A stretch of 64,000 nt of DNA from Candidatus Poribacteria bacterium (lineage in GTDB: Bacteria > Poribacteria > WGA-4E > WGA-3G). A program made the translations under genes and the position numbers. Shown piece after piece: positions 36,670 to 58,221 of the stretch. The stretch covers positions 3,040,001 to 3,104,000 of the forward strand of contig OZ243938.1 of NCBI GenBank assembly GCA_965214095.1, in the 5' to 3' direction. Each line of letters starts with the position of its first letter. Within the stretch, counting starts at the first letter, position 1. Below the pieces are notes generated by a model. That model was given only the letters and a program-made list of their open reading frames with translations, was not told the DNA's origin and made no database searches.

Positions 36670-37872
36670 TTATAGAAATTTTGTCACCACTAATGTGATG
36701 TCATCATGTAGGTTTTCACCTTGTTGATATGCTTCAAGATCGGCTAATATCTCAGTCCTAATTTCAACTGGAGATAGGGAGCGATTTTTAACTAGCAGGT
36801 CCTTTAAACGTTCAATCCCATACATCTCAGCATCTGCATTAAATGCTTCAGTGATACCATCAGAATAAAGCACAAGAAAGTCACCGGGTTCCCATGTAGT
36901 TTCTGTACTATGGTAGTGAGTCACTGCATCTTGATCTGGTAATGCAATACCTACTGGCGTAAATTGCGAGTCTAATTCAATGAATTCATCACTCTTCATC
37001 CGATAAAGAAGCATTGAAGGGTGTCCCGCGTTGGCAAATTCAAGTCGATTGTCCTGATGGATAATCACATAACAACATGTCATATAGATAAAGGTCTGTG
37101 CATCTTCCTCCGTGACGCGTTTTACGGCTTGCATTACCTCTGGTACCGATGCATCAAACCGTATTTGTGTCTGAATGCCACTTTTAGTCATCGCTGCGAC
37201 CATCGCAGAATGAAACCCATGCCCCATCACATCACCGATAAAAATTCCAACCTGTTCATTTGGCAGATAGAGATAATCATAATAATCCCCACCGACATTG
37301 TTCGTTGGTTGGCAATATCCGGCAGAAGTAATACACGAATGTTTAATCTCTTCGTTTGGCAAGATTGATTGCTGTACCTGCGCTGCGAGTCGCATAGACT
37401 CCTCTTGGGCGATCTCTTTGCGAATGGCACCCATCTGAACTTCAAGATCATTCCGTATCTTATTATTGAGAACCCGAAACATACCTCTACCAATCAGCGG
37501 AATGCGGGCTAATGCTTGGAAAAAATCGTCACGATCAATACGCAGCAGACGTGTTAAAGTGCACGTTTTAATCGTTGCACTTCTCGGTTTATCGTCAATC
37601 AGCGCAACTTCACCGAAACAATATCCCTTCTCTTTAAATGATAATACTTCTGTTTCAGCTTTGATGATGCTGATTTCGCCATCTACCAAAAAGTAAAGTG
37701 AATCTCCTTCCGCACCTTCCTTAAAAATAGTGTGACTTTTAGGGAAAACTATTTCATGGGCAATGTCGCTAATAGATTCTATATCTGCTATTGAGAGTTC
37801 TGCAAAAAGTTCAGTCTGTTTTAGAAACGTGCTTTTCTCTTTGGCTAACATAAACACAAATATCCTCGGCAA
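36670..37872 (-). CDS. cNMP-binding domain + SpoIIE/PP2C protein phosphatase
   Basis: CFGEVAL...PRSAT (cNMP); VGGDYYD, GDVMGHG, YSDGITE and DDIT (PP2C). Likely start at ATG 37851. Confidence 0.9.
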   Translation of the reverse strand: MPRIFVFMLAKEKSTFLKQTELFAELSIADIESISDIAHEIVFPKSHTIFKEGAEGDSLYFLVDGEISIIKAETEVLSFKEKGYCFGEVALIDDKPRSATIKTCTLTRLLRIDRDDFFQALARIPLIGRGMFRVLNNKIRNDLEVQMGAIRKEIAQEESMRLAAQVQQSILPNEEIKHSCITSAGYCQPTNNVGGDYYDYLYLPNEQVGIFIGDVMGHGFHSAMVAAMTKSGIQTQIRFDASVPEVMQAVKRVTEEDAQTFIYMTCCYVIIHQDNRLEFANAGHPSMLLYRMKSDEFIELDSQFTPVGIALPDQDAVTHYHSTETTWEPGDFLVLYSDGITEAFNADAEMYGIERLKDLLVKNRSLSPVEIRTEILADLEAYQQGENLHDDITLVVTKFL

Positions 37873-38095
37873 TGTGCTTTATTGAGTATTATTTGAAAGA
37901 AATATTCAACTATCGGTTTTATTTAGCAATCGTGGTATTATATCCAACCTACCTGTATTTGTCAAACCTGTTTTTGCCTAAACTCATTAGACATATCTTG
38001 CACAATTGTTCATTGCATAGTATCATTATTTGAATAATGACTTAATGTGACAATTGCATGTTACCATCAATTCACACCAATACTGGAGCACATCT

Positions 38096-38707
38096 ATGAT
38101 CTCAGTCTACAAAATAAAACCTTGGTTTCAACAATTACTAAAACCGGTACTGACAACACTCCATAAAATCGGTTTCACGCCCAACGCTATCACTTGGATG
38201 GCAATACTATTGTCAGCAGTCATCGGTGTTCTATTATGGTTCTATCCTAATGGTGCTATGCTCTGGATATTTGCTGTCGCTTTATTAGTAAGAATGACGT
38301 TGAACGCACTTGATGGGATGATGGCGAAAATGTATAACATGACAAGCACTTCAGGTGAAATACTAAATGAACTTGGTGATGTCATATCCGATGCTGTCAT
38401 GTTTTTCCCGCTGATAAAACTTACTGGGGTCAACTTCTGGTGGGTGCTGTTGTTTATGTTCCTCTCTATGCTAAATGAATTCATCGGAGTCCTAACGAAA
38501 GCTGCGACAGGTACAAGAAGATACGACGGTCCAATGGGTAAGAGTGATAGAGCCTTAATATTGGGGATTACTTGTTTGCTGTTCTTCTTTTGGGAAAAGG
38601 TATCGTTAGCTTTCAATTACATTTTCATTGGAATGAGTATCCTGTTATTATTGAGTTCTGCAATTCGAATTAAAAATGGATTAAAACAAATCGGGAGTGC
38701 TGAATGA
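38096..38707 (+). CDS. ynbA: CDP-alcohol phosphatidyltransferase (YnbA-like)
   Basis: MISVYKIKPWFQQLLKP, NALDGMMA...GEILNELGDVISD and GPMGKSDRA; GGAG RBS. Confidence 0.85.
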   Translation: MISVYKIKPWFQQLLKPVLTTLHKIGFTPNAITWMAILLSAVIGVLLWFYPNGAMLWIFAVALLVRMTLNALDGMMAKMYNMTSTSGEILNELGDVISDAVMFFPLIKLTGVNFWWVLLFMFLSMLNEFIGVLTKAATGTRRYDGPMGKSDRALILGITCLLFFFWEKVSLAFNYIFIGMSILLLLSSAIRIKNGLKQIGSAE

Positions 38708-39660
38708 ATATACTAAATTTGCTTATAGTTCAACAAAAGGAAATTGCATTAGTTATCGGTTTGATTTTCGGAATTCTCGTTTTTGCATCCTTTCTTTTCT
38801 GGATTTTGGGAAAAGTAAAACCAAAAACCGACCTATCTGAATTAGTCATGAGAACCAAATCGTGGTGGGTAATGGCTATTATCTTTGTTTTGGCTATCAT
38901 TTTACATCCTGTTATCACCTTTATCTCTTTAGGGTTGTTGTCTTTTCTTGCGTTGCGAGAATTATCAACAATAAGCAAAAACGTCAGAGAATCAGATCGA
39001 AAGGTATTGATATGGTGCTTCTTGAGCATTCCATTCCAATATTATTTTGCATACATCGGACAATACAGCCTGTTTATCATCTTCATTCCTGTGTTTATGT
39101 ATCTATGGATCGCATTTATGCTGGTGATAATCGGTGAAACAGAGGATATTAGCCGTTCCATGAGTGTCCTACCTGCCCAATTGATGCTTACCGTTTTTGG
39201 TATCAGTCATCTGGCATTTCTGGTTTCATTGCCTGATATTGATGGCTTTGACGCAGGAGGTAGAGCTCTACTGTTGTTCATTGTTTTCATAACAGAAATG
39301 AACGATGTCTTCCAGTTCACATGGGGAAAGTTACTTGGAAGATTTAAGGTCATTCCAAAGGTCAGTCCGAATAAAACTTGGGAAGGATTGATAGGAGGCG
39401 TTATTACTTCGGTAATTGTTGGTTACTTTTTGCGTTTCTTAACACCATTCTCCGAAATTGAAATTTTGATCACTTGTGGCATAGTAGCAATTACCGGTTT
39501 TGTCGGTGATGTCGTTGTTTCTGCTATTAAGAGAGATATAGGTCTAAAAGATACAGGAGAAGCAATTCCCGGTCATGGTGGGATTTTAGACAGAATTGAT
39601 TCGCTTGCTGTCACGGGACCAGTGTTCTTTCATATTGTGTATAACCTATATTACCTCTGA
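38704..39660 (+). CDS. ynbB: Phosphatidate cytidylyltransferase (YnbB-like)
   Basis: RTKSWWVM, VSPNKTWEG and KD.G..IPGHGGILDRIDS. Overlaps the ynbA stop. Confidence 0.88.
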   Translation: MNILNLLIVQQKEIALVIGLIFGILVFASFLFWILGKVKPKTDLSELVMRTKSWWVMAIIFVLAIILHPVITFISLGLLSFLALRELSTISKNVRESDRKVLIWCFLSIPFQYYFAYIGQYSLFIIFIPVFMYLWIAFMLVIIGETEDISRSMSVLPAQLMLTVFGISHLAFLVSLPDIDGFDAGGRALLLFIVFITEMNDVFQFTWGKLLGRFKVIPKVSPNKTWEGLIGGVITSVIVGYFLRFLTPFSEIEILITCGIVAITGFVGDVVVSAIKRDIGLKDTGEAIPGHGGILDRIDSLAVTGPVFFHIVYNLYYL

Positions 39661-40149: not shown

Positions 40150-40616
40150 ACTATAGTTTGGACAGTTTTTTGAGGATTTGAACAGTGCTCTGGACAAGGA
40201 GCATCACAGTCATCATATCTATTTCTTGAATGATACACCTATCGCCCCGCTGGGGCTTGCATTGGTCGGGGCACATTTTCTATACACCATAGGCGTCAAT
40301 TTAGCGTCCTTCCAAGTACCGGTAGGTTCGGTTTCCTAACCGAACCGGCTTTGTGCTAAATACCTTCATAGAGGTTCTCGCGTAGGATCCGGTTCGGTTA
40401 GGAAACCGAACCTACCGTCCTGGGGAAAACGCCTAATTTACACTAAATTGACGCCCATGGGGCACATTTTTCTATACACATTCCGCCCCGCTGGGGCTGC
40501 TCATTTTGATGTTTTCACACTTTTTCATCAAAGTATTATCCTATCCAAAACTCACAATATATTGCAAATGCCAGCAATATCAGTATGTAACCAAGAGAAA
40601 TTGTCCAAACTATAGT
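40150..40616. mobile_element. Nested MITE/REPIN composite
   Basis: Outer 15-bp TIR actatagtttggaca / tgtccaaactatagt. Inner 18-bp TIR ccataggcgtcaatttag (40287) / ctaaattgacgcccatgg (40460). Innermost inverted REP pair at 40321-40416. Confidence 0.75.
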
Positions 40617-40776: not shown

Positions 40777-43700
40777 ATGTCAATTACCGATTATTTTAAC
40801 GGAAAAGTCTTGCTGATTACGGGTGGTACCGCCTTCCTCGGGCAACCAATGGTTGCCAAAATCCTGACCTCTCTTCCAAATGTCAAAAAAATATATCTTC
40901 TCATTCGGAATCGGGTTGAGTCAAACGGCAAAATCACTTCCGCACAAACACGATTTGAAAAAGAGTTGTTGACCTCCGATGTTTTTGAAGAATTACGTCA
41001 GAAACACGGCACTCAATTTGAAGAATGGGTTAAGGAAAAGATCACTCCTGTTGAAGGTGAACTCACAGATGAAAGACTCGGTTTCAGCGATGCCGACTAT
41101 CAACGTCTACAAAATGAAGTTGACATCTTTATTAATATCGCAGGACTCGTTCAGTTTGATCCGCCATTTGATGCCTCACTAAAAGGTAATACCTTCGCCG
41201 CTAAACATGTTGTGACTTTCGCAAAAGGTTGCTCAAATGCGGTTTTTCTCCATGTTTCCACTGCGTATGTCTGCGGTGACAGAACGGGTCATGTGCCAGA
41301 AGAACTCCATCCACCTTATGAACAATACGCACAAGAACATAACGAAAAAAGTCCAACGAAAATCCCCGCAACCCTCACAGAAGAGATTGATTATCTACTC
41401 TCTTTAAACCAATCCATACGTGATGAAGCTGAATCCGCTGAACAAATAGCACATTTTCAAGAGATTGCTGAAAAGCAATTAAAAGCAGACAAACGTAAAA
41501 GTCGAAAAAACATTGATACCCTCACTGAAGAGGTTAAGGAAGAATGGCTTGAGGAACGTCTGGTGGAAGCGGGACTGGAACACGCGCGGTCACGCGGATG
41601 GAACGACACATATACCTACATGAAATTCCTCGCCGAAGAGGTAATCATGGAAATGCGTGGCGACCTACCGACAGCCATCGTTCGTCCTTCCATCATTGAA
41701 AGTAGTATCGCGGAACCGCATCCAGGGTGGCTCGGTAAATATCGGATGTCCGAACCGCTCATCGTCGGTTTTGCAAAAGGAAGACTCCCCGATTTTCCCG
41801 CAGACCCAGATATTATTTTAGATATTGTGCCTGTTGATTTCGTAGTGAATGCAATGTTAGCCGCAGCAGAAGCCATCGCAGAAAGCGGTGGAATTGAGGT
41901 ATACCACGTCGCTACCGGCACACAAAATCCGCTCTACTTCCGCGGAATTGTAGAAGCTACCTATGACTATTTTACTAAAAATCCTATGATAGAAAACGGG
42001 CAACCTATTCCTGTTCCAGTTTGGCAATATCCCACTTTAGAGGAATTCCAACGAAAATTAGACAGTAAAATGCGTCTGCTTGACCGCGCAATGAAAGCAC
42101 TAACACTACTCCCCTTCAAATCCGCAAAACGACAAAGACGCAGATTGTTCATAAAACAGAGCAGCATAAAAGCAGCACTTCACTATATTCGGATTTACGC
42201 ACCTTATACCCGCACGAACTTTGAATTTGAAACAAAAAAGATGCAAGCACTTTATCAACAACTTTCGCCTGAAGAACAGAAAATGTTTAATTTTGATGTG
42301 TCTCAAATTCAATGGAAACAATACTTCCAAGATATACACATTCCAGGCATCAAAAGACACGTGCTTAAAATTGATGAGGATACACCCAAACAGAAAGAAG
42401 AATCTACACAAGAGGAAGCAGACGATTATCCTGCTCCGGCACCAAATCCTATAGATAACATTTCACCAAGTACAATCGTAGATTTAATTGAGATGCAGGC
42501 GAAACGAGTCCCTGATAGAATTGCTCTCCAGATGGTAACCGAAGATGAATGGGAACGGTATACTTACGCTGAAACCTACTCACATTCACGTCAAGCAGCA
42601 TACCAATTATGGAAAAACGGTTTGCAAAAAGGGGACAGAGTTGTTTTGGTATCAGAAAACCAACCTGAGTGGTGTATCGCCTACCTTGCCGCTTCGCAAA
42701 TCGGGTGTGCAGTTGTTCCACTTGACGCACAAACACCGATAAGAGAGATATTAGCCATCGCGGAGTTCACTACCGCAAAAGCAGTCTTAGCATCAGATGC
42801 TGTTTTAGCCAAATCAAAAACACAACTGACTGAGACAGATATACTCATACAAAACATCAACAAGTTTAACGAAACTGCCAATTTAAAAGACGAGATTCCA
42901 TCAGACTTTCCTAACGTAGAAATTACACCAGACACAGTTGCTTCTATTATCTTTACGATGGGAACAACGGTAGACCCAAAAGGGGCTATGCTAACGCATG
43001 GTGGATTTATCTCTAATGTGAAAGCAGTTGCCAAAGCATTACCACCAACAGATGAAGAACGCATCTTGTCCGCTTTGCCACTGTATCATGCATTGAGTTT
43101 TTCATGTAGTTTATTGATGACTCTTTATGGTGGTACTACCGCAACCTATGTCAACGCACTGCGTCCGACTACTCTTTTGAAAGCCATGCGTGAGGATAAA
43201 ACCACTGCATTTATCAGTGTACCCCGACTCTTTCAAATGCTACAAAGCACTATTGAACGACAAGCATCGCGGGAAGACACACCGGGAGAAACCATTACCG
43301 AAAAAGCAAAAAATGTAATGGGTGGAGACATCCGAGTCCTTGTCAGCGGTGGTGCTGCCCTTGACGATGCTACTTATGATGGATTTCAAAAACTCGGTCT
43401 AACACTTTATCAAGGCTACGGTATGACCGAAACAGCACCGGTCCTTAGCGTCAATCCTTATCTGAATAGTAAACGTGGGTCTGTCGGTCCTCCAGTTGAA
43501 GGTGTTGAATTTCAAGTTTTGAATCCAGATAGTAATGGAGTTGGTGAAATCATCGCAAAAGGTCCCAGTAATATGATAGGATACTATCACAATCAAGATG
43601 CAACCGAAAAGGCTGTCCAAGACGGTTGGCTTTATACAGGTGATCTTGGATACATTGATGAGGATGGTTACCTATTTCTCACAGGACACTGTAAAGATGT

Positions 43701-45012
43701 AATCGTTCCTGCTTCCGGCAAGAACATCTATCCAGTTGAATTAGAAAAACTGTACCAAAACTGTCCAGTCATTGATGAGATGTGCGTCGTTGGCATTCCC
43801 TACGAAGATGGGTTAGATACTGATGTTCATGCAGTAATTATTACAACCGATGACAAAGACAATACGAAAACAGAGGTCCATCATCACTTGCAGAAAATCG
43901 CTAAACAACTGCCGAGTTACCAACATTTTCACAAAACACACCTTTTTCAATCTCCTCTGCCAAAAACCGAAAACGGAGAAATTGACAGGAAAAAGGTTAA
44001 AGTAGAGTTAGAGGAACATCTTGCAAAAGAACAGACTATTATCTCAAATGAAGCAGAACAAGAATCTGAAAATATTCCAGAGGATATTTTAGCACCACTG
44101 GCAGGATTAGCACGGATGCCAGCAAATCAGATTCGTGGAGAAAACCGTTTGGATACCGATCTTGGACTCGATTCACTCACGCGCCTTGACTTGCTGATGC
44201 TCCTCGAATCCAGACTCGGTCAGACAATACCTGAAGCAATAGTTGCGAACTTGCAGACAGTCAACGATGTTGTTGAATTAACACAGACTTTTGCAGAAAC
44301 AGATGTAAATCAATCATCTGGAATATCAGAAAAACCTTTGAAATTGCGGGAAAAACCACATTGGTATGCACGTGCATTTCGTGCAGGTGTACGAAGTTTT
44401 TACAGACACCGTTTTTCATTTGAATGTTTCGGACTTGAAAACATACCACAAGACAAACCTTACATCATCACACCGAACCACGCAAGCCATTTAGATACGC
44501 TTACGGTGATTACAGCACTTGGTCAATATTCACACCGTATGTGGACGCTTGCCGCACGCGATTACTGGTTCGGTAACCGCTTTCAAGGATGGTTTGCACA
44601 CAATTGTCTCAACGCACTGCCTATTGAGCGCGACGGCAATTTTAGTCAGTTTCTACAAGATTTACGTATGGCAAATGCAGTTATGGAGCAAAACAATGGA
44701 TTGCTCATTTTCCCTGAAGGCACACGGTCGGTTGATGGAGAACTACAACCTTTCAAACCGGGTGTTCTCAGTCTACTAATTTATGGAGAACAGGTACCGA
44801 TAATACCGGCATACATTAAAGGCACATATCAAGCACTGCCAAAAGGACAAAACTTACCAAAAAAACATCCGATTCAGATCGCTTTTGGAGAACCACTTCT
44901 ATTTGAAGGCACACAAAACACAGACAACATCACGGAAAATTCGGAAATATACCAGAAATTTCTGACTGAACTTGAAACCCGTGTTGCTGAACTCAAACAA
45001 AAATTATCTTAG
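40777..45012 (+). CDS. ElbD-like multidomain lipid enzyme: fatty acyl-CoA reductase + adenylation-like domain + ACP + PlsC-type acyltransferase
   Basis: FAR motifs ITGGTAFLG, HVSTAYV, YTYMK, IVRPSII, PVDFV; AMP-binding fold QGYGMTE and YTGDLG; ACP DLGLDSL; acyltransferase NHASHLD and FPEGTRS. Confidence 0.88.
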   Translation: MSITDYFNGKVLLITGGTAFLGQPMVAKILTSLPNVKKIYLLIRNRVESNGKITSAQTRFEKELLTSDVFEELRQKHGTQFEEWVKEKITPVEGELTDERLGFSDADYQRLQNEVDIFINIAGLVQFDPPFDASLKGNTFAAKHVVTFAKGCSNAVFLHVSTAYVCGDRTGHVPEELHPPYEQYAQEHNEKSPTKIPATLTEEIDYLLSLNQSIRDEAESAEQIAHFQEIAEKQLKADKRKSRKNIDTLTEEVKEEWLEERLVEAGLEHARSRGWNDTYTYMKFLAEEVIMEMRGDLPTAIVRPSIIESSIAEPHPGWLGKYRMSEPLIVGFAKGRLPDFPADPDIILDIVPVDFVVNAMLAAAEAIAESGGIEVYHVATGTQNPLYFRGIVEATYDYFTKNPMIENGQPIPVPVWQYPTLEEFQRKLDSKMRLLDRAMKALTLLPFKSAKRQRRRLFIKQSSIKAALHYIRIYAPYTRTNFEFETKKMQALYQQLSPEEQKMFNFDVSQIQWKQYFQDIHIPGIKRHVLKIDEDTPKQKEESTQEEADDYPAPAPNPIDNISPSTIVDLIEMQAKRVPDRIALQMVTEDEWERYTYAETYSHSRQAAYQLWKNGLQKGDRVVLVSENQPEWCIAYLAASQIGCAVVPLDAQTPIREILAIAEFTTAKAVLASDAVLAKSKTQLTETDILIQNINKFNETANLKDEIPSDFPNVEITPDTVASIIFTMGTTVDPKGAMLTHGGFISNVKAVAKALPPTDEERILSALPLYHALSFSCSLLMTLYGGTTATYVNALRPTTLLKAMREDKTTAFISVPRLFQMLQSTIERQASREDTPGETITEKAKNVMGGDIRVLVSGGAALDDATYDGFQKLGLTLYQGYGMTETAPVLSVNPYLNSKRGSVGPPVEGVEFQVLNPDSNGVGEIIAKGPSNMIGYYHNQDATEKAVQDGWLYTGDLGYIDEDGYLFLTGHCKDVIVPASGKNIYPVELEKLYQNCPVIDEMCVVGIPYEDGLDTDVHAVIITTDDKDNTKTEVHHHLQKIAKQLPSYQHFHKTHLFQSPLPKTENGEIDRKKVKVELEEHLAKEQTIISNEAEQESENIPEDILAPLAGLARMPANQIRGENRLDTDLGLDSLTRLDLLMLLESRLGQTIPEAIVANLQTVNDVVELTQTFAETDVNQSSGISEKPLKLREKPHWYARAFRAGVRSFYRHRFSFECFGLENIPQDKPYIITPNHASHLDTLTVITALGQYSHRMWTLAARDYWFGNRFQGWFAHNCLNALPIERDGNFSQFLQDLRMANAVMEQNNGLLIFPEGTRSVDGELQPFKPGVLSLLIYGEQVPIIPAYIKGTYQALPKGQNLPKKHPIQIAFGEPLLFEGTQNTDNITENSEIYQKFLTELETRVAELKQKLS

Positions 45013-45020
45013 GAATTAAA

Positions 45021-45707
45021 TTGGAATCGCTTCAGAAAAATACAATCGCTTTCTTTGATGTAGACGGCACTTTGGTAAGCACAACTATTGTGCATTGTTA
45101 CGTCTGGCTTCGGACTTCATCGTTTTCTCGAATACAGAAACTATTCTGGACTATCGGTTTCTTACCAAAGGTCATCTACTATCTGATTTTAGATCGGATT
45201 AGTAGACCGCAGTTTAATCGGGTATTCTATAGAAATTATCGTGGAATGAACGCGGATACGTTAAAAACTTCAGCATCTGATATGTTCGAAAATTATCTGA
45301 AACACAAAATATATCCTGAAGCTATTACACAAATACAAGAACACAAAGAGCAAGGACACCAAGTTGTGCTTTTGACCGGTTCACTTGACTTCATTGTCAG
45401 TCCTATCGCTGAGTTTTTCGGTGCAGATTCAATATTAGCTCCTGAACTCATGGAGTTCGGAGGGAAGTTCACTGGTGAACTCACAACTGAACCGCTCATC
45501 GGAGAACAAAAGGCAATAGCGATGAAGAAGTTTAGTGAACAAACACAGATTCCACTTGATATATGCTATGCTTATAGTGACAGTCAATCTGATCTACCGA
45601 TGTTAAATGCAGTAGGCAAACCTGTCGCAGTCAATCCGAGCAAAGGCCTTCGCAAACAGGCACTTGAAGCAAACTGGGAAATCCACGAATGGATGAAGGC
45701 ATCTTGA
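45021..45707 (+). CDS. HAD-IB family phosphatase
   Basis: AFFDVDGTL, LLTGS, AYSDSQSDLPML and AVNP. Starts 8 bp after the ElbD-like gene. Confidence 0.9.
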   Translation: MESLQKNTIAFFDVDGTLVSTTIVHCYVWLRTSSFSRIQKLFWTIGFLPKVIYYLILDRISRPQFNRVFYRNYRGMNADTLKTSASDMFENYLKHKIYPEAITQIQEHKEQGHQVVLLTGSLDFIVSPIAEFFGADSILAPELMEFGGKFTGELTTEPLIGEQKAIAMKKFSEQTQIPLDICYAYSDSQSDLPMLNAVGKPVAVNPSKGLRKQALEANWEIHEWMKAS

Positions 45708-52995: not shown

Positions 52996-55900
52996 TTACT
53001 TCAACACCAATATCTTACCAACTTTTTGCACACGATCATCACCTTTGGTAGCAGTGAATTTGTAGATATAGACACCGTTCGCAAGTGGATCACCTTCTGC
53101 ATCTAAACCTTCAAAATGATATTCGTTATAGGAGATTGATGCATCAAGCGTATCAATCGTCGTGATTAGTTTACCAGTCAGTGTGTAAATCTTGAGCGTG
53201 ACTTTATCTGCACCACCCGTGAGATAGTAAGCAAAGTTAGTTCCCTTACCAATGCCTTTGCCAGGACGGAACGGATTAGGGAAGTTTGCGATGTTTTTTA
53301 TCTCAAATCCACCAGCAACTTTCGCGTTTAGACCACTATCCTCTACATTTCCATTTGCATCCTGTGCCTGCAGTCTTATACGGTATTCACCAGCATCCAA
53401 TGCATTTATAGGTGAATAGGTAATGAATAGGACGTTGCTACTCAATGGAGAAGCGGAGACTGTGTATTCATCCTGTGGGACACGATCACCGTTCTTGGTG
53501 AGAATGATATTATCCTGACGTGGATCAATGCCGTTTGCATCCTCAATTTTAGCAGAAAAAGTAGGCGTATCAGAAATGTAGTCACCATCAATGAATCCTT
53601 GATTGTCAACGCTTATCTCTAAGGTCGGTGGTTGTGAATCTGTGTGAGATAGCAAGGCAAATGTCCCTGGTAGTTTCACCTCAGCAGATATAGTATCTTC
53701 TGTCTCTGTTTGCTCTCCAACGCGAATCCAGTTCTCTGTCTCATCGTCTTGCATGTATATGTACAAGGTTTCTTCAGCAGTTTTCACAAACGACGCTGTT
53801 GCAACTAATTCTGATTGCTCGCTCAATTTTAGACGATAGGCAACAGGTGTTGTCTCAGTATCCAATGTGGGAGCAGAAACTATATCAGGTTGGTTTTTGA
53901 TGGTCAACGTTTCCGTTTCAAATGTCATTGCCCCGTGGGTTTCAAGGCTACCGGGAGGAATTGTGATGCTAAGCTTCCCATCTAAACTCTGTATTGGCTT
54001 GTCAATACTATCAGAATCAAAGAAAATATGTGAACTTTCAATTTCCCGTGATGCAATATTATTGTTCGTATTATATTCAGGAAAAATACCATCCGGTTTT
54101 TCTGTCGTTGGCATATCAACAAACACAGCTACAATATATTTACCAGGGTCAGGTCGCCACGGCACACTTGCCACAACAGTTCTATTGGGTGGTAATTCAG
54201 GCAGCAAATACACATCACCGATTGGAGTCGCATTCTGTAACATCTCAAGTGTGACCTCTTGTGTCTCTGCACCATCAGTTACTGGAATTTGAAAGAAACT
54301 TACAGGAACATCTTTGGCAGAAAGGGAATCCCGATTACTTATATGTGCCGAAAGATGAAATGGGGAATTGGTATCCCAATCAAGAGTGTGTTCTAAAACG
54401 GTCAAATCTCCTAATCCAACACTATATGTGGCTGTCTCTGTCTGAAGTATACGTCCATCATTTGGTTTGACATATATATAATAATCAATTTGCTCCCCTG
54501 ATTCTTGTCCAGAGATAGGTTGTTCAGTTCTATAGGTTTTCCCTGCCTGTTTAATCATAGGAATTGCTTCAGCTTCATCTCGGCGGGATTCTATTAGGAA
54601 CGGACTCCAATAGAGTGTAATTTCGTCAATTTCACTTTCATTGGCTACTTCTGCGTAAATATGAACAGGTTGATCCGGTAATACAGGATACGGCTCAAGG
54701 CGAACGTCTTTAATATAGTGATCTACAGGATTAGACGATAAATGACCAATTACATCTTTCTCGTTATTCCATGCATAAGTTCGCAGATGCCATGAATCAT
54801 AAGCACTGTTATATGGTAGTTGGATTTCTGCTTCAAATTTACCATCTACAACTTGCACTGTTGCCATGCGTGGTTCAACATCCATACCCAATCGATTCGT
54901 TGTGGATTCAGAACGGAACCATGTTCGGACTCTTTTGCCCTCTCTGTTTAGCGGATTTGGCAGCACTGTTACCTCTGCGTTTCCACTGAAATTCGGATCA
55001 GGTATTGTGCCAGCAACTGTCAACAAGGTTCCTGCATCAAAAACATCTCTATGTAAGATTTCCTCTGTTTCTGTTTTGATCTGCATCTCTGTATGCGGCA
55101 ATCTTAATTTTGTAGCAGGATCACCAAACAATGTAAACACTTCTGTCAGATCAGGGTAACCCGGTAGATTTATCAAAAAACGTGTCTTTGCTTCTGCCAG
55201 GATGGCACCAATATGTAACATTTTGTCATGGAAAATCACATCTAAAATCTCTTTATTCAGGACGTGATCTTGGTATAATAACCCGATGCTTGTTCCACCG
55301 ATCACACCAATAGCACCACCACTATCCGAACGGAGAAATTCCTCAGCAAGACATCCTGTTTTACTATCAAATTCCCCTGTAAAACAGGTCATACTAATGA
55401 CAAAAGGCAATTGTGATATATTCGTTAAGTTTTTCTGCGGGTCCTCCAAATCCATCATACGACTTGATGCCCACCTACCGCCAGCACCATGCCCAACATA
55501 ATTGACAAGACTTGCCCCACTGTTAAAACCATCAATTACTTGTCTCCCAACTGGTGTGCTACCTTCACCTAATAACTGGTCATCTCCGACGGAAGGGGCT
55601 GCATATATTAATTGGGTTTCATATTTTTCGGTGAGTCTATTTTCTTCAATAAGCGAATCTGTTTGGATGTGAAAATCCTCATCTGAACCCGCAAGCATGA
55701 GTATACGTTTATGCCAAGGTCCAATTTCGTCTGTACTCTCATATTTTATTGCACGTTCAACGAATATCCGTGTATCCACGCTATTTGTTGCTGGAACACG
55801 TCCAATGAACATTTCGGGGAAAAAATCGTTGCCGCGAAATGTAACGAACTGGTGATCACTTGAAGATGAACCATAACCAGGGACTTGTATCTGAATCGTA

Positions 55901-58221
55901 GGAACAACGCTTGTTTTGTCTATAGGATTTGCATCTCCAATTAACAGAACATACGTGGGTGCAGGGGGTTGCCAGTTTTCATAAGTATACTTAAGAAAAT
56001 CACGGATTGCGTATGGATTTAGAATACCATGATTGAATTCATCATAGATATCTTGAACATCTACAACTTTCGATCGCATCCCTTGTTGACTTCTGAAGTC
56101 TGCAAGCGGTTGTACATCTCGCATGAGTTCTGTAGCGGTAATAATAATATAATCTGCACCGTTGTGCTGGTTACGTAAATCGGATGGTGTATCTTTTATG
56201 ATTTTTTCAGGTTTTAGGTATTTGTCGTCTGTTATTGCAATATATTGTATAGCAGTATCAGGGATGTGCGGTTGATCTGGTTGTAATCGCGGTACACCGC
56301 CAATCCGAGTAGATTGGAAAACGACATCGTATACACCTGGATTATCTTCATCTTCTATAGGAGCTAAGCCCACATACCGAGTGCCGTCAACACTAAATAT
56401 TTCAATATTTGGATTGGTAAAGTTTTTGAGGGTGACCTTAAAATTTGGATTTATCTCACCGGTTGCGTCATCTGGTAGTAGAGTAATTGAGAAAGGCAAT
56501 ACGTTCTCATTCGCATCATAGGTTCGCCAATAATCAATTTCAAACCAGTTAATCATGACCAGGTCCAACACATGGTCTTCAGGAATAACTGTTCCTAACG
56601 TATTTATACCGTTCTTGAGAAAAGATTGTGATATTTCTCGGTTTTCAAACCGATATTCCGTTGCTGCAGACCATCCCGGTCTTCCAATCACGATATCGTC
56701 ATTCAACCACAGTTCTGTAAAGTGTGTGCCTTCAGACCTACCGTGTAAAATGACCCGTATGGTTGCTTTGTTGCCAGTGCCTGCTACCCCAGCGAGTGTG
56801 AACGAAAAATCCTTGATCTCTGTGGCACTTATCTGTGCCCAAAACCAACTATCATCGGGCAGTTCGGGTAGTGAATTAATAGTGAAGCCTCGGAATTGAA
56901 GCCCATCGCTAAATTGTTCAATATCGTCACCTTGTTCCAAACCGAAGTTCTTAAATCGTCTGAATTGATTATCCTTTTCCACATGGACACGTGTGTAAAA
57001 GTTATTCGGTTCATATAGGTCAATGGAGTCTGTAGAAATAGTTTTCGTATCCATACGGAGCCCCGGTCCACCATTCCATGTAAGCCAATAGATATTTTCA
57101 TCGGTATATGGATCAAAATATGTTTTTTCTCCACTGTGACGCTGTGCGTAGAAGACAATTTCAGCATCAACACCAAATCCTGAATTATCATTTACTGACT
57201 TTCCGTTACCTGTGTTCCGCACAAATATCGGTATAGGCTTTCCTCTGTTAGACAGTACTAATGTAGAAGGTCTGATCGTTGATACGTCAACCCCAGCAGC
57301 TGCTAAATCGCTTGCTGTAATGTGGTGCATCCCAGTAGAAGTTATAATGACTTTGTAGCGAGACGTAGTACTTGCGGGGGCACCCGCTAAAGATAACGGT
57401 GGGTTGGCGGTAGAAAATGCATCAAAACCAGACAAATCACCCTTTGACAATGTATTTCTATCTGAGGAACGCCATTGCTTAGCAGTTTCTGGATTAATCA
57501 ACAGTTTTCCAAACATTTCTTCATAGACTGAAGATTCTGGACGAAGTATTCCTGGCAAAGAAGAAGGAGTGTTTCTATTACCATTGAACTGCACTTCAAC
57601 CACAAGTTTGTGATAGAGTTTAACAATCCCACTCACAGGATTATATTGAACGGGATTTAGTTGAATAGGAAGTACTCGATTTTCTCTGATCCATCCTGCA
57701 GTTCCAATTTTGGCAAGGTTGTAAGGGTAAAAGCGATTAGTTGCATAATTAGAAACCGATTTGTGCTTGAACAGTGTACCTTCAGAATTGCTTCGTCCTA
57801 TAATGTCTCTATAATCTGCAAGTGTGTGTTTGAGGGTGTATGTGCTAAAGTCACCACTTTCAATAATTCGGACAGAAAAACTTGCATCGGATGGAACTCC
57901 TATTAATGCAGTTTGCACGGGTAGATGCGGATTCCCTGGTTCATAACCGAAACGGCATCTTGGAAAAGAAATAGACTGGAACTGTTTGCCGTCGCGTTCA
58001 TGGGTATTAATCTCAAAATCTGCTTTTGAGACCGAGAGTTGTAAGACCACGCCTTGTGGTGTGGCACTGACCAATTCAATCGCACAATCGCGCTGTGTAT
58101 TATCGCTGGCAGTTGAAGGGTTGTTTTCATAAATAGGTGCAGCATCTACAGATATAACAGCAGAAAACGACACTATCGTTATCAGGAGCAAAAGTGTTGT
58201 GAAGAGGGTATTTTTTTTCAT
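52996..58221 (-). CDS. C25 (gingipain/PorU-like) cysteine peptidase with C-terminal FlgD/CTD-like domain
   Basis: Signal peptide, C25 propeptide, ADYIIIT, IYDEFNHG, catalytic NYVGHG and SMTC, LFGDP, and C-terminal NFPNPF...LANGVYIYK. Confidence 0.88.
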   Translation of the reverse strand: MKKNTLFTTLLLLITIVSFSAVISVDAAPIYENNPSTASDNTQRDCAIELVSATPQGVVLQLSVSKADFEINTHERDGKQFQSISFPRCRFGYEPGNPHLPVQTALIGVPSDASFSVRIIESGDFSTYTLKHTLADYRDIIGRSNSEGTLFKHKSVSNYATNRFYPYNLAKIGTAGWIRENRVLPIQLNPVQYNPVSGIVKLYHKLVVEVQFNGNRNTPSSLPGILRPESSVYEEMFGKLLINPETAKQWRSSDRNTLSKGDLSGFDAFSTANPPLSLAGAPASTTSRYKVIITSTGMHHITASDLAAAGVDVSTIRPSTLVLSNRGKPIPIFVRNTGNGKSVNDNSGFGVDAEIVFYAQRHSGEKTYFDPYTDENIYWLTWNGGPGLRMDTKTISTDSIDLYEPNNFYTRVHVEKDNQFRRFKNFGLEQGDDIEQFSDGLQFRGFTINSLPELPDDSWFWAQISATEIKDFSFTLAGVAGTGNKATIRVILHGRSEGTHFTELWLNDDIVIGRPGWSAATEYRFENREISQSFLKNGINTLGTVIPEDHVLDLVMINWFEIDYWRTYDANENVLPFSITLLPDDATGEINPNFKVTLKNFTNPNIEIFSVDGTRYVGLAPIEDEDNPGVYDVVFQSTRIGGVPRLQPDQPHIPDTAIQYIAITDDKYLKPEKIIKDTPSDLRNQHNGADYIIITATELMRDVQPLADFRSQQGMRSKVVDVQDIYDEFNHGILNPYAIRDFLKYTYENWQPPAPTYVLLIGDANPIDKTSVVPTIQIQVPGYGSSSSDHQFVTFRGNDFFPEMFIGRVPATNSVDTRIFVERAIKYESTDEIGPWHKRILMLAGSDEDFHIQTDSLIEENRLTEKYETQLIYAAPSVGDDQLLGEGSTPVGRQVIDGFNSGASLVNYVGHGAGGRWASSRMMDLEDPQKNLTNISQLPFVISMTCFTGEFDSKTGCLAEEFLRSDSGGAIGVIGGTSIGLLYQDHVLNKEILDVIFHDKMLHIGAILAEAKTRFLINLPGYPDLTEVFTLFGDPATKLRLPHTEMQIKTETEEILHRDVFDAGTLLTVAGTIPDPNFSGNAEVTVLPNPLNREGKRVRTWFRSESTTNRLGMDVEPRMATVQVVDGKFEAEIQLPYNSAYDSWHLRTYAWNNEKDVIGHLSSNPVDHYIKDVRLEPYPVLPDQPVHIYAEVANESEIDEITLYWSPFLIESRRDEAEAIPMIKQAGKTYRTEQPISGQESGEQIDYYIYVKPNDGRILQTETATYSVGLGDLTVLEHTLDWDTNSPFHLSAHISNRDSLSAKDVPVSFFQIPVTDGAETQEVTLEMLQNATPIGDVYLLPELPPNRTVVASVPWRPDPGKYIVAVFVDMPTTEKPDGIFPEYNTNNNIASREIESSHIFFDSDSIDKPIQSLDGKLSITIPPGSLETHGAMTFETETLTIKNQPDIVSAPTLDTETTPVAYRLKLSEQSELVATASFVKTAEETLYIYMQDDETENWIRVGEQTETEDTISAEVKLPGTFALLSHTDSQPPTLEISVDNQGFIDGDYISDTPTFSAKIEDANGIDPRQDNIILTKNGDRVPQDEYTVSASPLSSNVLFITYSPINALDAGEYRIRLQAQDANGNVEDSGLNAKVAGGFEIKNIANFPNPFRPGKGIGKGTNFAYYLTGGADKVTLKIYTLTGKLITTIDTLDASISYNEYHFEGLDAEGDPLANGVYIYKFTATKGDDRVQKVGKILVLK

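Follow-up and report, generated by a model that had tools for sequence, protein, structure and literature searches.

Clade-wide substitutions at the core motifs of the poribacterial ElbD adenylation domain suggest a selected, non-canonical member of the ANL superfamily

Introduction

ElbD is the key enzyme, with a mechanism that is not known, of the main aerobic bacterial route to alkyl-ether lipids, and Poribacteria together with other sponge symbionts are proposed producers of sponge ether lipids. Here we describe an elbD-like gene of Candidatus Poribacteria, located in a stretch of 64,000 nucleotides (NCBI GenBank assembly GCA_965214095.1, contig OZ243938.1, positions 3,040,001 to 3,104,000 of the forward strand; this whole stretch is hereafter called the window) of a 5.2 Mb genome that is 94% complete. 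The encoded protein carries an adenylation-type (A) domain whose P-loop, A8/hinge and A10 motifs depart from those of the ANL superfamily, the class I adenylate-forming enzymes. Comparison with relatives from Poribacteria and other phyla indicates a selected, non-canonical ANL domain, which may have given up the ATP-dependent adenylation of fatty acids and kept a role in acyl handling.

Domain organisation and core motifs

The gene is a single open reading frame (ORF) of 1411 amino acids (aa), in which a fatty acyl reductase (FAR), an acyl-CoA-ligase-like A domain, an acyl carrier protein (ACP) and an AGPAT-like acyltransferase (AT) follow each other in one polypeptide, the domain order of ElbD-type enzymes (Table 1). 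Also in keeping with this enzyme type, a gene for an ElbB-type HAD phosphohydrolase lies adjacent, and a HAD gene comes after elbD in 10/10 poribacterial loci examined. In agreement with full-length homology to the myxobacterial ElbD, the FAR-A-ACP-AT proteins among which the A domain falls include Haliangium Hoch_3248 and loci of Kofleriaceae. The closest relatives of the protein are 79 loci, all titled Candidatus Poribacteria, with 65-95% identity; an orthologue 95% identical to the elbD of the window exists in a Candidatus Poribacteria genome. Membership of the A domain in the ANL superfamily is indicated by its two-lobed fold, with both AMP-binding and AMP-binding_C present.

Table 1 Features of the window discussed in the text, numbered from its first nucleotide.
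Feature	Residues (aa)	Position	Strand	Remarks
elbD-like gene		40777..45012	+	FAR (reductase), adenylation-type A, carrier ACP and PlsC-type AT domains (translation, Pfam)
NAD_binding_4 (fatty acyl reductase)	14-360	40816..41856	+	GGTAFLG and YTYMK motifs intact (Pfam)
Sterile (FAR C-terminal) domain	464-531	42166..42369	+	Pfam
AMP-binding (ANL N-terminal subdomain)	572-937	42490..43587	+	Pfam, 4.8e-78
A3/P-loop FTMGTTVDPKG	726-736	42952..42984	+	Met728 (42958-42960) for Ser; Val732 (42970-42972) for Gly
A5 YGMTE	881-885	43417..43431	+	Intact; 79/79 Poribacteria
A7 YTGDLG	953-958	43633..43650	+	Intact; TGD in 79/79 Poribacteria
A8/hinge TGHCKD	969-974	43681..43698	+	His971 (43687-43689) for the superfamily-invariant Arg
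AMP-binding_C (ANL C-terminal subdomain)	988-1067	43738..43977	+	Pfam, 1.5e-06
Thr1015	1015	43819..43821	+	Glu in canonical relatives; G-E-x-x-x-A register
A10 PKTENGEI	1062-1069	43960..43983	+	Glu1068 (43978-43980) at the catalytic Lys site
PP-binding (ACP)	1108-1167	44098..44277	+	Ser in DLGLDSL, aa 1128-1134 (44158-44178) (Pfam)
PlsC-type Acyltransferase	1216-1348	44422..44820	+	NHASHLD (HX4D) and FPEGTR intact (Pfam)
ElbB-like HAD phosphatase		45021..45707	+	Starts 9 bases downstream of elbD
CDP-alcohol phosphatidyltransferase		38054..38707	+	Upstream of elbD; phospholipid head-group gene
CDP-diglyceride synthase CdsA		38704..39660	+	Upstream of elbD; phospholipid head-group gene
cNMP-binding + SpoIIE (PP2C-type phosphatase) gene		36670..37872	-	Divergent from and upstream of elbD
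116-nt element		40310..40425		Within the ORF-poor gap upstream of elbD
Peptidase_C25 protein gene		52996..58221	-	1741 aa

The initial annotation, made from the letters of the window alone, had read the P-loop as FTMGTTVDPKG, the hinge as TGHCKD and the A10 motif as PKTENGEI, and had described YGMTE, YTGDLG, the ACP Ser and the reading frame as intact; the translation and the positions of the motifs confirmed each of these readings. The register of the motifs was checked against a characterised and solved enzyme by a phmmer search of the PDB, in which 4-coumarate:CoA ligase 2 (5bsm) was matched at 3e-49. This alignment pairs ftMgttVdpkg with ysSgttGlpkg, ltgHckd with ivdRlke and lpktengEidrk with ipkspsgKilrk, and so places Met728 on the Ser and Val732 on the Gly of the P-loop, His971 on the A8 Arg and Glu1068 on the A10 Lys.

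Across 374 class I adenylate-forming enzymes five positions are invariant, including the A8 Arg and the A10 Lys, and mutations of the P-loop Gly and Pro severely inhibit activity (PMC6122825). On the register given above, the A domain of the window replaces two of these five positions, the A8 Arg (Arg433 in the numbering of the T. thermophilus long-chain acyl-CoA synthetase, LACS) by His971 and the A10 Lys (Lys524) by Glu1068; the invariant A5 Glu (Glu328) and A7 Asp (Asp418) are kept as E885 and D956. FTMGTTVDPKG likewise departs from the P-loop pattern [TS][SG]G[TS][TS]GxPK[GA], with Met in place of Ser and Val in place of Gly. The substitutions at the core motifs are more than chance. The genome's other AMP-binding enzymes, which serve as an internal control, have canonical versions of all three motifs (3/3).

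Conservation and selection across Poribacteria

For Poribacteria we compared 79 A domains, taken from the window and from the A-domain ORFs of 78 of the 79 related loci; the remaining locus, L044, has the reductase part only. The substitutions are clade-wide at the P-loop, with Met and Val in 79/79 each, and at the A8 site, with His in 76/79 and Leu in the other three (L020, L021, L033). At A10, Glu is found in 8/79, and the former Lys site carries 13 residue kinds (T24, S11, N10, E8, A6, K5, V5, G3, R2, H2, I1, L1, D1) with an entropy of 3.10 bits, which corresponds to the 99.6th percentile of 504 A-domain columns; the flanking residues L1061, K1063, D1070 and R1071 are conserved in 78-79/79. 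The Lys present in five Poribacteria (L023, L024, L026, L028 and L029) looks secondary, because these include a nested sister pair in the tree described below. The Pro site of the P-loop, which is Pro in the window, is Ala in 66/79. Full conservation (79/79 each) was observed for E885, D956, K973, G981-K982-N983 and the carrier motif LGLDSL, and the His of PLYH (A4) is nearly invariant.

The ratio of nonsynonymous to synonymous substitution rates (dN/dS) was calculated by the Nei-Gojobori method for 28 non-overlapping pairs with 85.8-97.8% aa identity, the most distant of which have a dS of ~0.8-1.0. Median dN/dS was 0.07 for the N-subdomain and 0.115 for the C-subdomain of the A domain, compared with 0.09 for the FAR region, 0.069 for the linker, 0.078 for the ACP and 0.048 for the AT, so that the A domain is under strong purifying selection comparable to that on the other ElbD domains. 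The initial annotation had named private substitutions together with relaxed selection as speaking against its inference; neither was found. A private lesion or pseudogene was rejected, since the substitutions are clade-wide in the 79 A domains and dN/dS is low, and sequencing error was rejected as well, with the same residues recurring in 76-79/79 independent assemblies.

In 13/79 poribacterial species elbD is split into a FAR gene of ~534 aa and an A-ACP-AT gene of ~875 aa (L031, L034, L035, L037, L038, L043, L054, L056, L061, L068, L069, L070 and L075), which Pfam domains confirmed for L034 (6001-7602 and 7810-10449). The variant A-domain motifs are the same in these split copies.

Phylogenetic origin of the substitutions

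An exhaustive HMMER search with the A domain of the window yielded 150 representatives, 18 of which were dropped from the tree (16 proteins of >3000 aa and two short fragments). The FastTree phylogeny, with local supports only, comprised 169 A domains: 132 representatives, the window, 15 sponge Poribacteria, P0283, L186 and 19 other loci. Across this tree the motifs erode in five nested steps. Stand-alone ligases and A-ACP-AT proteins of ~880 aa are canonical, and so is a clade of FAR-A-ACP-AT proteins of 1500-1700 aa (support 100) that holds the named Myxococcota loci and Haliangium ochraceum Hoch_3248 (P0210). In a Planctomycetota/Acidobacteriota/Verrucomicrobiota clade the P-loop Gly is changed to Val or Leu with Arg and Lys retained. 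In a 49-row clade of Acidobacteriota, Gemmatimonadota and other Poribacteria, including Latescibacteria names, the Lys is frequently missing, as in the Gemmatimonadota rows, and the P-loops are degenerate. Finally, Ser>Met and Arg>His are added in the sponge-Poribacteria clade, which comprises 16 rows and has a support of 100 and a stem of length 0.51. Counted as minimum changes on the tree, the Arg was altered once, the Lys nine times and the Gly 11 times; the Arg>His replacement occurred once, on the long stem that leads to the sponge clade, and the A8 Arg is present in 153/153 non-sponge rows.

The mean P-loop score was 5.98 in the 41 Lys-less rows compared with 8.33 in the 123 rows with Lys. 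P0283, a named Poribacteria protein, has Glu at A10 and the representative of its 90% cluster, P0123 (a 1417-aa cluster), has Lys; both retain the A8 Arg and the P-loop Ser. Because members of one 90%-identity cluster differ at this position, the A10 site seems to be already unconstrained in this sister lineage.

A GC-biased pattern for an ElbD-specific peptide also matched cultured Actinomycetota, namely Georgenia, Jiangella, Haloactinopolyspora, Oceanitalea and Segeticoccus (L151-L153, L157, L158, L165, L169, L175, L185, L189, L190, L194, L199, L209 and L213); a filter on the A5 motif found no A-domain ORF in these matched loci.

Changes around the nucleotide site and predicted structure

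To define positions that switched with the sponge clade, residues shared by at least 90% of its 16 rows were set against residues shared by at least 75% of 78 fully canonical rows. Only 11 A-domain positions qualified (728 S>M, 732 G>V, 737 V>A, 743 N>G, 761 D>E, 770 H>Y, 879 E>Q, 883 L>M, 931 N>S, 971 R>H and 1015 E>T), most of them within or beside A3, A4, A5 and A8. Three of them, S>M, G>V and R>H, are the switches with a fully conserved canonical residue and no overlap between the two groups, and the changes at the nucleotide site are thus the sharpest clade-specific differences in the A domain.

Position 1015 is Thr in 16/16 sponge rows and Glu in 59/78 canonical rows. In the T. thermophilus LACS the A8 Arg (Arg433) forms a salt bridge with Glu475 (PMC6122825), and by motif register Thr1015 would sit at the position of this Glu partner; on that mapping, His and Thr would stand in for the two partners of the salt bridge. 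The sponge clade also has seven conserved basic residues at positions that are variable elsewhere (R762, R817, R832, K872, R900, H1018 and K1053).

An AlphaFold2 model of the A domain, built on a 49-row alignment, had a mean predicted local distance difference test score (pLDDT) of 90.9 and a predicted template modelling score (pTM) of 0.89, and the predicted fold is intact. In Foldseek the whole model superposed best on structures in the second conformation (TMq 0.77-0.80, root-mean-square deviation (rmsd) 3-4 Å, best E 1e-42), which by their titles include 5bsr (4-coumarate:CoA ligase (4CL) with AMP and CoA), 5x8f (a MenE ternary complex) and 4g37 (luciferase in its 'second catalytic conformation'); the ATP-bound entries 5bsm, 2d1q, 4fut, 4gxr, 5bur and 6k4d reached a TMq of 0.64-0.66 only, with an rmsd of ~11 Å. 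The model thus lies in the thioester-forming arrangement, as would fit a domain that has lost adenylation.

Comparison with Myxococcota ElbD and other known systems

For comparison with the lineage in which ElbD has been studied, 109 Myxococcota loci were collected, 79 of them titled and 30 from a sample of 301 genomes screened with a stricter first look. An A-domain ORF was present in 103 of these loci, which are not all independent (G001 is counted twice), and here the Arg and the Lys are each conserved in 103/103 and the P-loop Ser and Gly in 101/103 each, with two gaps; the motifs of H. ochraceum Hoch_3248 are canonical, too. Ligase and ACP activity in vitro has been shown for the M. xanthus ElbD only, and genetic evidence indicates that the myxobacterial ElbD supports ether-lipid formation, with the ether-forming step of this route not known (reviewed in PMC9131029). 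Because the Myxococcota motifs are canonical, the ligase activity of M. xanthus ElbD does not transfer to the poribacterial protein and says nothing about its variant A domain.

Myxobacterial ElbD shares with the protein of the window the FAR-A-ACP-AT order (as described for M. xanthus, PMC9131029), the ElbB-type HAD partner and the tree family. It differs in its canonical P-loop, A8 Arg and A10 Lys and in its length (~1500-1700 aa), with an A domain that is only ~30-35% identical to that of the window. The ORFs from 29.8 to 58.2 kb were scanned for genes resembling elbA, elbC and elbE of the elb operon (NAD-dependent epimerase/dehydratase, unknown protein), and none was found beside the gene of the window. 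The cluster families described for sponge symbionts (bioRxiv 10.64898/2026.06.23.733905), several of which have only elbD and elbB, contain the same gene pair in the same phylum, including a variant with FAR and A split. That preprint treats the A domain as active and specificity-determining, with poor AdenylPred and PARAS scores; its main text does not discuss the core-motif substitutions, and its supplementary active-site table S4 might bear on them. A literature search for ElbD combined with motif terms gave no ElbD paper among the best 12 of 1,086 matches. The elbD-elbB pair is known in Poribacteria; the state and the evolutionary pattern of the A-domain core motifs are new.

Canonical acyl- and aryl-CoA ligases (4CL2, 5bsm/5bsr; MenE, 5x8f; FadD13, 3r44; ttLC-FACS, 1ult) have the same fold and the conserved A5, A7 and A4 His, and the A domain of the window deviates from them by Ser>Met and Gly>Val in A3, Arg>His in A8 and Lys>Glu in A10. 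A parallel for the missing Lys is the A domain of module 3 of CysK, an NRPS (non-ribosomal peptide synthetase) for cystobactamid, which is likewise without the A10 Lys, does not load substrate and has its carrier loaded in trans (PMC7966384). It differs in its NRPS context and its dedicated shuttle protein CysB, and the poribacterial ElbD is altered in the P-loop and the A8 Arg as well. By analogy, this inactive domain may serve as a precedent for the poribacterial case.

Discussion

The initial annotation had suggested that the domain may no longer adenylate fatty acids. The comparative pattern supports a loss of the adenylation half-reaction, because the Lys site is highly variable, the changes at the nucleotide site are the sharpest of the domain and the lineage that has been assayed is canonical. 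The reading that we favour, and to which we would give about an even chance of being right, is that classical adenylation with exchange of ATP and pyrophosphate (PPi) has been lost and that the A domain keeps an acyl-handling or thiolation role for its own ACP. The loss itself, the acyl donor and the part played by AMP are what we infer from these comparisons. On this reading the first half-reaction, the formation of acyl-AMP and PPi from ATP and a fatty acid, would have been given up. The residues that have disappeared (the A10 Lys, the Ser, the Gly and usually the Pro of the P-loop, and the A8 Arg with its probable Glu partner) all serve this half-reaction or PPi binding. Those retained (the A5 Thr-Glu, the A7 Asp and the A4 His, together with K973, G-K-N 981-983 and the carrier Ser) serve the binding of AMP and acyl-adenylate and the thiolation. 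That the former Lys site varies freely and even admits acidic residues suggests that the C-subdomain no longer needs the adenylation conformation. The A domain may mostly adopt the thioester-forming conformation and handle acyl groups for the carrier in cis: it would take up a pre-activated acyl group and pass it to the ACP, where the reductase and acyltransferase domains could use it. Because the second ANL half-reaction is reversible, one possible route would start from acyl-CoA, with thioesterification reversed in an AMP-dependent manner and the acyl group then transferred to the phosphopantetheine of the ACP.

A more specific form of the favoured reading, which we consider rather unlikely, would make the sponge-symbiont ElbD a 'second-half-reaction-only' ANL domain. 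Such a domain would dispense with ATP; it would bind AMP or acyl-AMP and supply its own carrier with acyl groups taken from acyl-CoA or acyl-ACP, with the Met/Val P-loop filling the pyrophosphate pocket and His and Thr replacing the hinge Arg-Glu pair; the same might apply in part to the Lys-less ElbD of Acidobacteriota, Gemmatimonadota and Latescibacterota.

Several observations weigh against a loss of adenylation, and some of them at the same time favour the best-placed alternative, which we regard as somewhat unlikely, namely that the A domain still adenylates with ATP and loads the ACP, with other residues of a remodelled nucleotide site taking over from the A10 Lys and the A8 Arg. In its new form the P-loop is invariant, with T730, T731 (76/79), K735 (75/79) and G736 retained, as would be expected of a phosphate-binding loop that is still in use. 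In the large Planctomycetota/Acidobacteriota clade Val or Leu in the P-loop coexists with Arg and Lys, so that Gly>Val alone may be tolerated, and the missing Lys could be made up for by the seven basic residues conserved in the clade. Strong purifying selection extends over the whole A domain, and conservation covers E885, D956, the PLYH His, the carrier Ser and the acyltransferase motifs. The conserved carrier Ser needs a loading route, and the 10 neighbourhoods examined contain no alternative loader linked to elbD, which does not speak against an unlinked one. Three further points concern the evidence for the loss: a coupling of Lys loss and P-loop decay was not supported by an independent-pairs test (0-1/8 pairs, p = 1), the canonical state of M. 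xanthus ElbD itself is deduced from the 103 other Myxococcota loci, and the choice of a conformational state by AlphaFold2 is weak evidence. Retained adenylation has against it the free variation at the Lys site, where even Glu and Asp occur; this is hard to square with use of the adenylation conformation. In addition, the Arg and the Lys are invariant in the 374 ANL enzymes, across all families, with strongly impaired mutants (PMC6122825), and the natural A domain lacking the A10 Lys is inactive (PMC7966384).

That the A domain is a dead scaffold or pseudoenzyme, which positions the reductase, carrier and acyltransferase or binds the acyl chain while FAR and AT take acyl-CoA or acyl-ACP directly, we consider improbable. 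Two invariant catalytic residues are missing, as this explanation would expect, and FAR and PlsC enzymes that occur on their own as a rule accept acyl-CoA or acyl-ACP directly. A pure scaffold, as the initial annotation had also envisaged, is however a poor fit with the conserved AMP-side motifs, carrier Ser and thiolation-side residues, since it would have no need of an invariant YGMTE, TGD, GKN and K973, a fixed new P-loop and a carrier Ser in 79/79. The A N-subdomain matches the catalytic domains in its low dN/dS, and in the 13 species with a split gene FAR is separated from A and A-ACP-AT remains a unit without it. Repurposing of the altered domain for other chemistry, such as the ether-bond-forming step, is very improbable and, for the ether bond, has no support here: a new reaction would be compatible with the conserved His and the remodelling of the nucleotide pocket, and the ether-forming step of the ElbD route is not known (PMC9131029), but no new conserved catalytic constellation beyond His971 was identified, and ether formation does not require the substitutions because the Myxococcota lineage that supports it is canonical in all 103 homologues examined.

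If the favoured loss of adenylation is correct, the Myxococcus-derived model, in which free fatty acid and ATP load the ACP, would be wrong for sponge symbionts, substrate predictions from the A-domain specificity code would not be meaningful for them, and the acyl source would have to be acyl-CoA or acyl-ACP. The poribacterial proteins would then represent a large, strongly selected natural ANL clade without two of the five superfamily-invariant residues and a natural experiment on what the ANL fold is capable of without its adenylation half-reaction.

Genomic neighbourhood and further observations

Upstream of elbD lie the genes of a CDP-alcohol phosphatidyltransferase and of CdsA, a pair that is also found near elbD in the poribacterial loci L012 and L032. 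The divergent gene with cNMP-binding and SpoIIE domains is present in 8/10 related elbD loci examined, which suggests a conserved and possibly regulatory neighbour.

The ORF-poor gap of 1.1 kb upstream of elbD contains a 116-nt element with a near-perfect stem of ~29 bp (minimum free energy -69.6 kcal/mol, z = -10.9). It is repeated genome-wide on both strands, with 150 matches, ~45 of them near-full-length at 84-100% identity, and looks like a palindromic repeat family of the miniature inverted-repeat transposable element (MITE) or repetitive extragenic palindromic (REP) kind. Rfam returned only sub-threshold miRNA-like matches for the gap, which reflect the hairpin repeat.

Contigs ~92-93% identical to the window across most of elbD were present in two RNA-library runs of one study. 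As they come from a relative, and carry-over of DNA is possible, they are not counted as transcription of elbD.

Further downstream, a protein of 1741 aa combines Peptidase_C25 and its propeptide with a C-terminal FlgD_ig-like domain, the architecture of gingipain-like proteases.

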